IMG/VR virus record: IMGVR_UViG_3300034126_000020
Coordinates: 32,001 to 96,000 of that record
Direction: 5' to 3' (one strand)
Origin: a virus
Taxonomy: Duplodnaviria > Caudoviricetes
DNA length: 64,000 nt
Part shown: positions 5,284-32,189 of the stretch, piece by piece
Numbering within the stretch: position 1 is the stretch's first letter
Layout: each line of letters starts with the position of its first letter
Translations under genes and position numbers: made by a program
Notes under the pieces: model-generated
What the model was told of the DNA's origin: nothing
Databases searched by the model: none
Seen by the model: the letters and a program-made list of their open reading frames with translations, nothing else

Positions 5284-5579
5284 TTCGTGCAGGCCATCTT
5301 GTAGAATTCGTTATTGATCTCGATGAGCTGATCAATCGATGTAGCGGTATGCAGTGCATCAATGAAGCATCCAGCCGCACCTTGGATGGTCTTCATCAAA
5401 TGCTTGGCGGCTTCGAACTCATCGCCCGAGAGTTTGTCATACGTGGTTCGTTTGACCAGTTGCAACATGACGTTCATGTGACTGGCAGTAATGCGCCCCG
5501 CCATCCAACGCTCAGGGATGTCTTTATGCCCGGGAGAACTGGTATTTGCAAAGGAAGTAGTAACGTGGACGAGTGACAT
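5277..5579 (-). CDS. Hypothetical protein
   Basis: GAGG RBS before ATG 5579 (MSLVHVTTSF...). Confidence 0.6.
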   Translation of the reverse strand: MSLVHVTTSFANTSSPGHKDIPERWMAGRITASHMNVMLQLVKRTTYDKLSGDEFEAAKHLMKTIQGAAGCFIDALHTATSIDQLIEINNEFYKMACTKC

Positions 5580-5624
5580 GAGACACCTCAAATTCAAGAC
5601 TATAGGATTGGTATCTCGGCAAAA

Positions 5625-6500
5625 CAAAAAAAGAAAGAAGTCTTGGGGCAATCGTTCGGACGCACCTCAATGGGAGATCAACCCCACCATAGGAACGACT
5701 ATCGACGATGCCCCGTAACCTTGTGTAGCGCTTGTCTTCCTCATCCCTCGAGCCCTTTCACCAAGTGCGTCATCGCGTAGTGCGAGGCCTTGCGTTAATC
5801 GGTCGTAGGTTTGGATCAGACTGGAGGCCATTGCCATCCAATTCAACCGAACTCAATCGGAATCAATAGTCATCAAATGTGTTCACTGACACGGACTATT
5901 GATTAGCTCTCGTGCACCTTAGGCACGCGCTGGATAGTCCGCTCAGACACTGCCGTGCGATGTCCCTCTGCTGGTTTCACAACGCACGCTTGCGACGCTC
6001 GTGCCATGAAGAGTACACCTTCTAAGCGAGCCATTTCTGGCACCGCCCTTGGGAGAAGACCTTTCCCCAAGTCCTGATGGTGTATCTTATCCGACGACGC
6101 AATTGCGCTCTTCTCTTGCTTAGCGAACGCACGATTGTGCTCTTCCGCTTGGGCAGACAAGGTGACAGCTAGGGCCAACGCCACGAGAGTGGAGAAGCCG
6201 CGGGTTCTGATCAGTAGCTCCTTAGAGGCTTAATTGAACGCTCATGAGTTATCAATGGTCTCCAGTGCTACGGTGCACCTACCGTTCCACGCGCCTTATG
6301 CGTGAGGTAGGGCACCGAAGTCACTGAAACGGATGAAACGGTACCGGTAATGCGCGGCGGGTCATCGGTCTCATTCGGCGGCGTCACGAGTGACACGGCC
6401 TTTAGAAGACGTTGTACTGACGACCAGACGCGGCGCACGGAACCTAAGATCGATCCGAACAATGGCACTATCCTTAGACGATGTCACAGTGCTACTACAT
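5625..6500 (-). ncRNA. Putative large structured non-coding RNA (about 870 nt)
   Basis: No ATG-started ORF with typical codon usage; many nested helices including a GAAA tetraloop; G-U pairs favour the minus strand; TTGTATGTA at the 5' end; terminal stem plus U-tract at the 3' end. Confidence 0.55.
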
Positions 6501-6550
6501 ACAACTCGAGCCAAACGTATTTATTTACCCGGAGTCCTTATGTCCTTGAT

Positions 6551-7147
6551 TTAACGGGGTAATCTTGGCCGGGGAATGTTACGACCACGACGATAACCCG
6601 ACGGGACTTCATCGTCAGCGGCAGGATCGGGATCGGGATAGTCTTTGTTGAGACGTTCAACGATCTCCTCAACCGACATCCAGACGATTGGGTAGTTAGC
6701 GCCCACCGCCATGCCGTTGGTGTCTTGCTGGAACTTCTCCTCATCCTTCCATGCAGCCAAAGCACCCAACAACGAATCACGTGTACTGATCTCAGAACAC
6801 ATGACGTAGGTCGATTGACCCGATGGCAACCCATGGAAGTCCAGCGTCCAGCGCTTTTCATCAGGACTGTTGTTGTTCTTGAAGAGGTCGACCTGTGTGA
6901 TCGCGCCCTGCTTGGTGATCATGAACGCCATCATGGTCATGGAGACACGGGGATGGCTGGCCAGTTTCAAGCGACCGCTCACCACGTCAGCGATGTTCGG
7001 GCCAGTGCCGGACAATGGGTAGATGAAGCCTTCTTTGCTGAAGTACGTGCCGATGTCAGCTTCGAGTACCTTGAAGTGTACGCCTTCGTTGGCCTCGTGG
7101 ACCTCAGGGAACCCGACCATGCCACGGCGGTAGATTAGGAAGTTCAC
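6551..7147 (-). CDS. Hypothetical protein
   Basis: 198-aa ORF, coupled to the upstream peptidase gene by an overlapping stop/start. Confidence 0.7.
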   Translation of the reverse strand: MNFLIYRRGMVGFPEVHEANEGVHFKVLEADIGTYFSKEGFIYPLSGTGPNIADVVSGRLKLASHPRVSMTMMAFMITKQGAITQVDLFKNNNSPDEKRWTLDFHGLPSGQSTYVMCSEISTRDSLLGALAAWKDEEKFQQDTNGMAVGANYPIVWMSVEEIVERLNKDYPDPDPAADDEVPSGYRRGRNIPRPRLPR

Positions 7148-18526: not shown

Positions 18527-18600
18527 TTGTCTGTCCCTGTTGAAAGACGGAGATACATACAATTACAAAAAATAAAAGGAGGGCCGAAGCCCTCCCGTTA

Positions 18601-25367: not shown

Positions 25368-25510
25368 GGGCAGCATGAGTTTGAGCCCATGCTGCCCGGT
25401 ACAGGCGCCGTTGAAACGTATGCTACTGGCTCCCGCCGATGCTAAACCGTTTCGGGTTAAGCGTGTGCTGGATCACCCCCTCACTAGACAGAATCTACTG
25501 CCTGTACATA
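25368..25510 (-). ncRNA. Putative small structured RNA with its own promoter motif and terminator
   Basis: 8-bp closing stem GTACAGGC/GCCTGTAC (25399-25406 with 25500-25507) enclosing hairpins; TTGTATGTA at the 5' end; 10-bp terminator hairpin at 25368-25397. Confidence 0.45.
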
Positions 25511-25749
25511 CAATAGGATCGCCCTTATTAGTTTTTGGTTACGAGGGTAATGTATCGTTTGAGTAAAATCAAATCCACTATAAACAGGGGATACAGGCCA
25601 AGGCCTGTATCCCTTCCTTATTTGCTTTGTATCTTTTATAGATACCCCTAGGTATCCGAGGCAGCCAAATGATGTGTAGCTGCTCTCTTTATCTCATCTT
25701 GATTTATTGAGTGTCAGCCGCTCTTTAAATCCACTTCGGGTACCAAGAC

Positions 25750-31703: not shown

Positions 31704-32189
31704 ATGGCTCTTATTCAAGGTTCAAAAGTTGACCTCGTGTCAGCATTGAACCGGGAGACGCCAGTCGCATTGGACTACACTGGGTTGGTTTTCAGCCCAG
31801 TCGTACCGCTCCAGTCTGATCCGTCCGGCAAGTTGGTCAAGGTGCGTTTGTCGACGCTCCCTACCTACACGTACAGGGGCAGTGATGCTCTTGAATACAG
31901 CCGGCGTAATCTGGCCGATCTACCCGGTATCTTTCCGGTACTCCCACGCTGCGTCCCCGGTGCTACGTTGTACGCCATGTTGGCGGCCTTGGCCGATGGG
32001 ACCAGCATCCTGTTCACGTCTGACGATGTTGAAGACGCACCTGTGATCACCCGTGAAGACGGTAACTATCAGGTTCAGTTGACTGCGAAGGTTGGCTCGT
32101 ATGCCTGGTATGGCACGGGCCTATTGATCTTCCGCAACCTTCCTCACATCTCGTTGGCCATCGTGGACAACAACCTCTCCTGGAGCTAA
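31704..32189 (+). CDS. Tail paralog, N-terminal half of a split gene
   Basis: N-domain motif YRGSDALEYSRRNL; ends at TAA 32187-32189, in frame with the next ORF. Confidence 0.7.
   Translation: MALIQGSKVDLVSALNRETPVALDYTGLVFSPVVPLQSDPSGKLVKVRLSTLPTYTYRGSDALEYSRRNLADLPGIFPVLPRCVPGATLYAMLAALADGTSILFTSDDVEDAPVITREDGNYQVQLTAKVGSYAWYGTGLLIFRNLPHISLAIVDNNLSWS

Follow-up and report, generated by a model that had tools for sequence, protein, structure and literature searches.

The reading we favour, with some reservation, for a 0.9-kb stretch of phage DNA is that it specifies a bicistronic mRNA that is self-contained, folded throughout and extended by a structured, non-coding 3′ tail, in a phiKZ-related Pseudomonas jumbo phage that resembles pPa_SNUABM_DT01 (DT01). 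The stretch lies on the minus strand, between positions 6504 and 5625 of what is termed here the window, a 64,000-nt segment (positions 32,001 to 96,000) of the IMG/VR virus record IMGVR_UViG_3300034126_000020; coordinates are those of the window unless another genome is named. A first-pass annotation made from the letters alone had described it as a gene-free region forming a late-expressed, large structured non-coding RNA of a class that it did not recognise. Part of that description stands, as there is an ~880-nt minus-strand unit with a fold kept by covariation, a TATG promoter motif and a hairpin/U-tract end. However, the same unit carries two open reading frames (ORF-A and ORF-B) conserved in 12 genomes, with kept starts and Shine-Dalgarno (SD) sites, length changes in multiples of three and a signal peptide in 12 of 12 copies, which refutes “gene-free”; ORF-A is in fact already listed as a coding sequence (CDS) in DT01.

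The genome that contains the window is viral, 276,810 bp long with direct terminal repeats, and its only cultured relative is DT01, with a DNA identity of ~70% around the locus. DT01 is a phiKZ-related jumbo phage that encodes both virion and non-virion multisubunit RNA polymerases (PMC8541153). Copies of the locus were located via a neighbouring protein, an invariant 20-22-nt motif and a terminator-flank pattern; the last gave 11 matches, comprising nine new loci, among which L016 alone was real, and two in genomes already collected. The resulting set holds 12 distinct copies, namely the window, three viral contigs (L002, L003 and L007), five copies from metagenomes (L009, L010, L011, L013 and L014), DT01 (L001) and two distant genomes (L005 and L016). 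Pairwise identity among them runs from 97% down to unalignable, and they represent only ~6-7 independent lineages.

Conserved structure of the minus-strand RNA

Sliding 160-column RNAalifold windows over a 10-genome alignment of 2.7 kb gave, for 6459-5628, a structure conservation index (SCI) of 0.22-0.55 and as many as 15 covarying pairs, whereas the flanks, treated as controls, gave 0-0.14 in the upstream genes and 0.06-0.2 in the downstream gene, with 0-8 covarying pairs. Across three consensus segments, 89-93% of cells are paired, a share that drops to 37-52% once the partners are slid; each segment holds 20-24 two-sided pair changes and no shuffle reaches the observed value. Compensatory changes above matched controls, the general mark of a conserved structured RNA, are present. 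With the exception of hairpin H1, each consensus structure was scored on the alignment from which it had been derived.

For H1, whose definition came from single-sequence folds, 85% of cells pair compared with 33-44% with slid partners, seven pairs are doubly changed, and 0 of 500 shuffles reach the observed score. Its apical stem exists in the versions CACGC/GCGUG, CACCC/GGGUG, CACGG/CCGUG and CAUGC/GCAUG, and a covariance model built on it (R1) matches L016, which was outside the training set, with E=3e-8. The same model found no match in Noxifer, where no comparable unannotated gap occurs near its Arc-like regulator gene. Hairpin D1, inside ORF-A, has an SCI of 0.50-0.55 and many two-sided pair changes, for example CG/AU/GC/GU or UA/CG across genomes. 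A long hairpin of unrelated sequence also occupies the D1 position in L005; a covariance model of D1 (R2) detected neither L005 nor L016, and D1 homology in this subclade is a matter of fold shape only. Domain D3, inside ORF-B, comprises 54 RNAalifold pairs, 24 of them changed on both sides (SCI 0.22-0.30), and its hairpin 6071-6048 carries a stem that reads, by lineage, CUUGGG/CCCAAG, CUCGAC/GUUGAG, CUCAGC/GCUGAG or CUCGA/UCGAG.

Around the ORF-B stop codon, two alternative pairings are available, both of which form in every lineage. X/X′ (CGGACUAU/AUAGUCCG) encloses the stop codon together with a CGUGC-CUAAGGU-GCACG hairpin (5927-5911), and it pairs in 93% of cells with a single covarying pair. 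X′/X″ is found in three compensating versions, AUCAAUAG/CUAUUGAU, AAAGAUAG/CUAUCUUU and CAGUAUCGG/CCGAUACUG.

The four helix sets named in the first-pass annotation are all present and recur in the 10-genome RNAalifold consensus, that is, H1 (6320-6260), the helix 6087/6010 with hairpins 6071-6048 and 6041-6030, the pairing 5941-5934/5899-5892, and 5714-5645 with the U-tract. Its remark that G-U pairs appear only on the minus strand shrinks to a modest asymmetry, since G-U accounts for 11-13% of paired cells in sense and 4-12% in antisense with a similar SCI on both strands. Its proposal to judge the fold against shuffled controls gave a divided answer. Over the whole 880 nt the folding z-score is -3.1 for the minus strand and -2.8 for the plus strand, but local 240-nt values (-0.8 to -3.4, mean -1.7) overlap in range with those of neighbouring coding windows (mean -0.84, standard deviation 1.6, minimum -5.4). 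The support for structure comes from covariation, not from the single-sequence z-score. No known class was recognised: the Rfam 15 covariance models (including GOLLD, ROOL, HEARO, raiA, riboswitches and ribozymes) gave 0 matches at the gathering threshold over the whole window, and only one chance 17-bit match at E<=5 over 5400-6700; ARAGORN found neither tRNA nor tmRNA in the window.

Two conserved open reading frames

The two small ORFs make up ~510 of the 880 nt and are open in all 12 genomes. Between conserved anchors inside them there are seven length changes, all multiples of three (chance ~(1/3)^7), while the stretch after ORF-B ranges from 300 to 333 nt in any residue class. Open frames in all relatives, indels of whole codons, and conserved starts with SD sites are what coding sequence is expected to show; the exception is ORF-A of L005, which is shifted relative to H1 but open. 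In-frame ratios of nonsynonymous to synonymous substitution (dN/dS) are 0.34-0.86 across the ORFs, always under those of both other frames, and amount to weak constraint on the proteins. Identity is 0.61-0.67 in the ORFs and 0.69-0.73 in the tail.

ORF-A opens from the same start position in every genome, with ATG in seven relatives and GTG in the window's subgroup, and in most genomes the start follows AAGGA by 5 nt. The distance from leader to H1 is 195, 198, 207 or 216 nt, all multiples of three. Its dN/dS, 0.34-0.76 in frame, rises to ~1 when the other frames are read, substitutions by codon position are 72/64/92 (p = 0.07), and no Pfam, PHROG or remote homologue was found. In L005 (3716-3946) it differs by several indels that are not multiples of three from the 72%-identical L016, yet start and stop are unchanged. 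This shift may reflect either a genuine, compensated frameshift or an error of assembly, and the pattern hints that translation as such may matter above peptide sequence.

In ORF-B, the GGAG of the ribosome site is invariant in 12 of 12 genomes (as CUCUAAGGAG in 10), and the AUC start is likewise invariant. The spacer before the ATC takes indels of 1-2 nt, and after the ATC only multiples of three occur; in L013 a TAG stop stands immediately upstream of it. ORF-B thus appears to start at AUC, because an invariant GGAG followed after 6-8 nt by ATC is kept in 12 genomes and a stop lies directly upstream in one. The frame is kept between anchors, with 144, 147, 150 or 153 nt from ATC to GGTCT and 118 or 121 nt from GGTCT to GGACT. 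The dN/dS of ORF-B is 0.45-0.86 and its substitutions by codon position are 104/95/124 (p = 0.13).

By inspection, each of the 12 ORF-B copies begins in the manner of a Sec-type signal peptide, taken here as a positive n-region, a hydrophobic core of 10-15 residues and a small-x-small site with small residues at -3 and -1 (e.g. IRTRG / FSTLVALALAVTL / SAQA-EE). Gene callers, which called ORF-B in relatives, miss it or start ~9 codons late at a GTG (93 aa), thereby removing the n-region of the signal peptide. ORF-B has no Pfam or PHROG family, and a profile search of 1.8 billion proteins returned no homologues outside this phage clade. For the two proteins, identities as spanin, holin or lipoprotein were rejected, as they have no conserved lipobox cysteine and no transmembrane-rich body.

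A block inside ORF-B, CUUAGA(A/G)GG (codons ARLEG, 6017-6036), is complementary to the ORF-B ribosome site at 6212-6229 in some genomes: CUUAGAGG, ~165 nt into ORF-B, pairs with that site in five lineages and not in DT01, L013 or L009. The block could sequester this site at long range. Elsewhere in the genome, outside the window, the minus strand carries a five-tRNA cluster (His, Asn, Gln, Asp, Tyr; C1:129966-130957), which includes no initiator-like or Ile tRNA relevant to an AUC start.

Promoter, leader and 3′ end

Transcription probably starts at G6498 of a TATG promoter accompanied by an A/T-rich...TAC element around -24. The near-invariant 31-nt motif that spans this TATG occurs once per genome; 11 genomes share its first 22 nt exactly, L016 departs from them at one base, and all 31 nt are identical between the window and L005, though the other sequence of L005 is unalignable. 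The 27-nt leader that follows the putative start is nearly invariant and unpaired in the consensus, and no pairing partner that would form a 5′-3′ closing helix is common to the lineages. The upstream element GGGTAAATAAATACG is kept in all relatives, with the variant GGTAG-T-rich-TACG in L005/L016, and occurs a single time in the 276.8-kb genome.

In phiKZ, late promoters consist of TATG with a start at G, and middle promoters carry AAanTTACc around -24, some of them also with TATG (PMC4666361). The GGGTAAATAAATACG block resembles this middle-promoter motif at -24, although the match is approximate (PMC4666361), and a phiKZ-type promoter for the non-virion RNA polymerase (TATG with a start at G, the middle class adding AAanTTACc near -24) is recognised here by sequence match only. 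The likeness to those phiKZ promoters lies in TATG combined with a conserved A/T-rich...TAC block at ~-23 (PMC4666361), and DT01 encodes phiKZ-type RNA polymerase subunits (PMC8541153); unlike in phiKZ late promoters, the 27 nt after the start are invariant here, and the -24 block only approximates the phiKZ motif. The first-pass annotation was right about the TATG, but because TATG and the -24 block are both present and conserved, its “late” is not secure and the promoter may be of the middle rather than the late class.

The window contains three exact TTGTATGTA sites where 0.18 would be expected, and each of them is on the minus strand. The other two sites are at 18554-18562, after a terminator and ~30 nt before a gene start, and at 25505-25513, where the motif heads the second RNA candidate of the first-pass annotation. 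TATG in general is enriched between genes, since intergenic DNA makes up 8% of the genome and contains 21-29% of the sites. The remainder of the 31-nt motif, like the other conserved blocks, is single-copy in the genome and was not found in other isolated phages; among 185,579 bacterial genomes, none contains the 23-nt or the 20-nt conserved block. A scan for sigma-70 promoters and simple terminators gave no match.

At the opposite end, the last ~320 nt (5902-5580) is, as judged from the aligned sequences, a non-coding chain of covarying hairpins. It holds no conserved ORF, the only candidate frame having an early stop in L003, and its hairpins covary; a basal pair of the first, for example, changes from CG to UA, and one of the second from GC to AU. 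Loops and linkers of the tail hold invariant blocks, and AAGG(U/C) is displayed in several hairpin loops of the RNA. The chain ends in an 84-nt hairpin that folds alike in the window, L002, DT01 and L005, and whose stem occurs in the versions GGGGCAUCGU, GGGGCACCGU, GGGGCGUCGU, GGGACACUGU and GGGACACGGU, each with a matching 3′ strand. With its G+C-rich hairpin and an immediate U-tract in 12 of 12 genomes, it is a predicted intrinsic terminator; the simple scanner missed it owing to the length and branched tip of the hairpin. Transcription would end after it, near 5622, to give an RNA of ~880 nt. Two sequence versions of the terminator interior occur and are swapped between genomes 96% identical elsewhere, which suggests a cassette-like exchange inside one hairpin. 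Where 5645-5714 of the window is compared with L002:5416-5530, L002 has the version of the distant L007/L009 despite its 96% identity to L014 elsewhere.

The minus strand carries all genes near the 0.9-kb stretch, which is flanked by a 198-aa gene (7147-6551) and a 100-aa gene starting at 5579; both gave nothing usable in Pfam or PHROGs. Outside the RNA, the promoter-like motif ACCAATCCTATAG is probably the promoter of the 100-aa gene; it is kept in 11 genomes including L005 (as ACCAATTTCATAG) and was not seen in L016. The L005/L016 subclade has an insertion of tail-fibre-like genes (L005:2117-3073; two in L005), which separates the RNA unit from the homologue of the 100-aa gene. Features of the locus are collected in Table 1.

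Table 1. Features of the locus, in order along the minus strand (window coordinates).
Feature	Position	Strand	Description
Upstream promoter element GGGTAAATAAATACG	6516..6530	-	A/T-rich...TAC; centred ~-23 from the putative start
Near-invariant 31-nt motif	6471..6501	-	TATG core 6501-6498, putative start G6498, unpaired leader, SD AAGGA 6475-6471
ORF-A, 66 aa	6268..6468	-	GTG start; homologue of DT01 CDS PA10_00292
D1	6322..6464	-	Long irregular hairpin of six nested helices inside ORF-A; RNAalifold consensus
H1	6260..6320	-	Three-tier hairpin, 5-bp apical stem, 7-nt loop with AAGG; ends at the ORF-A stop codon
ORF-B ribosome site	6209..6229	-	GGAG, 6-8 nt spacer, apparent AUC start 6211-6209
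ORF-B, 102 aa	5903..6211	-	Predicted signal peptide IRTRG-FSTLVALALAVTL-SAQA, then ~80 residues; conserved C-terminal motif RTIQRVPKVH
D3	5963..6175	-	Multi-helix domain inside ORF-B: helix 6087/6010; hairpin 6071-6048 (loop AGGUCU); hairpin 6041-6030 GCCA-GAAA-UGGC
Stop-codon region	5864..5941	-	Alternative pairings: X (5941-5934)/X′ (5899-5892), or X′/X″ long hairpin (5901-5864)
Three tail hairpins	5759..5860	-	CCGA-UUGAGU-UCGG (5860-5847); GGA(U)GGC-AAUG-GCCUCC (5840-5822); CGCAAGGCC... (5794-5759)
Predicted terminator hairpin, 84 nt	5638..5721	-	Basal AGGUU/GACUU, internal loop, 10-bp stem, apical GGGG-UUGAUC-UCCC
U-rich tract CUUUCUUUUUUUGUUUU	5621..5637	-	Probable 3′ end; directly 3′ of the hairpin
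Promoter-like motif ACCAATCCTATAG	5600..5612	-	For the next gene (ATG at 5579); between U-tract and ATG

Competing readings and known systems

As a bicistronic mRNA, the RNA would present the ORF-A ribosome site on its unpaired 27-nt leader while the body of ORF-A is folded into D1 and H1, and a short linker would then present the strong GGAG and near-cognate AUC of ORF-B, whose body is D3. The fold, probably acting mainly in cis, would leave the two ribosome sites in the only open linkers, throttle and time the translation of two small, probably envelope-directed proteins, and shield the transcript and its 3′ end from RNases. The AUC start is consistent with the same direction, that of throttled translation. 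Several points weigh against this reading. AUC is a poor start codon, both ORFs show weak third-position bias (the downstream gene has 71/43/164, p = 1.6e-19), and neither protein belongs to any family. In L005, moreover, the ORF-A frame is shifted relative to H1 and its peptide is unrelated to the others, and the AlphaFold2 model of the ORF-B protein has only a helix at residues 4-28 (predicted local distance difference test score 57), with low confidence beyond this N-terminal helix. Weak periodicity does fit proteins that evolve fast and whose synonymous sites are constrained by base-pairing as well.

The weak codon periodicity, the high dN/dS, the non-canonical start of ORF-B and a model that is mostly disordered would also suit a large RNA that is purely non-coding, in which both open frames are untranslated by-products of G+C-rich structured sequence, and another frame of ~50 codons is indeed open across the leader in most genomes. 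We nevertheless regard a purely non-coding RNA as quite improbable, because each of the seven ORF indels is a multiple of three whereas the length of the tail varies freely, and because the starts are conserved together with their SD sites at fixed spacing; both frames also stay open in genomes unalignable at the DNA level, and the charge-then-hydrophobic pattern of the signal peptide survives sequence turnover. The opposite suspicion, that this is an ordinary operon of small genes whose structure is an artefact of alignment and of RNAalifold optimisation on related sequences, draws on single-sequence z-scores within the range of neighbouring genes, on a consensus derived from the very alignments used for the pair counts, and on the small number of independent lineages. 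It is highly unlikely to be correct, because the flanking genes, treated alike, give an SCI of 0-0.2 and 0-8 covarying pairs, and because H1 came from single-sequence folds and was confirmed outside the training set; several helices, in addition, exist in three or four compensating sequence versions.

The more serious competitor is a dual-function RNA, where the whole fold or a processed 3′ fragment (5902-5622) also acts in trans, perhaps as a base-pairing small RNA (sRNA) from the 3′ untranslated region (UTR), as a sponge or scaffold for proteins, or by decoying a host factor that targets RNA. The fold does outlast the protein sequence: in L005, H1 falls in a different frame and D1 retains its architecture although the sequence is unrelated. 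Conservation is higher in the tail, with its invariant blocks in loops and linkers, than in the ORFs, AAGG(U/C) recurs in hairpin loops, and the invariance of the 31-nt leader motif far exceeds the needs of a promoter. That said, no processing site, target or partner is known, no Rfam family matches, bacterial genomes contain nothing similar from which mimicry of a host RNA might be suspected, and the loops lack the GGA core of CsrA/RsmA sites; a CsrA/RsmA sponge was rejected, as the loops have AAGG(U/C) and not GGA. An additional action in trans is possible but, in our estimate, rather unlikely. We would also propose, quite tentatively, that the locus represents a new class of large bifunctional, ~0.9-kb ornate RNA in jumbo phages of the nucleus-forming type, in which selection acts on the modular fold itself (D1, H1, D3 and the tail of five hairpins), the fold serving, for example, as a riboregulator, a scaffold or a decoy for defences that target RNA, with ribosome passage through two fast-evolving ORFs, one of them AUC-gated, remodelling or licensing the fold.

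The comparison with GOLLD and ROOL, drawn in the first-pass annotation, survives only as an analogy, there being no covariance-model match. Like these Rfam families, the RNA described here is several hundred nt long, phage-borne and rich in covarying helices, and the function of GOLLD and ROOL was likewise unknown when they were found; unlike them, it has two conserved ORFs with ribosome sites and is found in one Pseudomonas jumbo-phage clade only. Dual-function RNAs and structured mRNAs of small proteins are known from RNAIII/hld, SgrS/SgrT and the hok mRNA of type I toxin-antitoxin systems, the fold of hok mRNA limiting how far a small membrane protein is translated. These share with the present RNA one or more small ORFs within an RNA whose conserved fold matters itself. 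In contrast to hok, no 5′-3′ closing helix was found here, there are two ORFs, and the RNA is ~0.9 kb long. A toxin-antitoxin system of the hok/sok type is not indicated either, given that ORF-B has 102 aa, a hydrophilic body and a cleavable-looking signal peptide, where a hydrophobic toxin of <60 aa would be expected, and that the leader has no conserved partner.

For the start of ORF-B, the familiar cases of non-AUG initiation are the AUU codons of infC and pcnB in E. coli. In both, as in ORF-B, a near-cognate start is selected beside a strong SD site, implying deliberately low or regulated initiation; ORF-B differs in that its codon is AUC and not AUU, that there is no known link to autoregulation by IF3, and that its product is a predicted secreted protein of a phage. 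As for the tail, sRNAs derived from 3′ UTRs and long terminator hairpins resemble it in being conserved, structured non-coding segments that share the terminator of an mRNA and are more conserved than the adjacent coding sequence, while typical sRNAs are much smaller than a tail of 320 nt with five hairpin modules. 5′ UTR sRNAs have been reported in phiKZ and 201phi2-1 (PMC11512511), and the tail is unrelated to the sRNA upstream of gp182 in these two phages (PMC11512511).

The phiKZ-related jumbo phages are candidates for therapy and models of the phage “nucleus”, and little is known of their RNA biology. The locus adds to it an RNA family absent from Rfam, defined from 12 genomes with a domain-by-domain fold backed by covariation, and a fold that runs through two coding regions is unusual for the mRNA of a DNA phage. 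It also corrects the annotation of this clade by adding a missed gene for a predicted secreted protein, whose apparent AUC start is kept over deep divergence and would be among the clearer comparative cases of a non-canonical start in phages. Given that the isolate pPa_SNUABM_DT01 and the tractable relative JPTI55 (on P. fluorescens SBW25) both exist, the locus is experimentally accessible.

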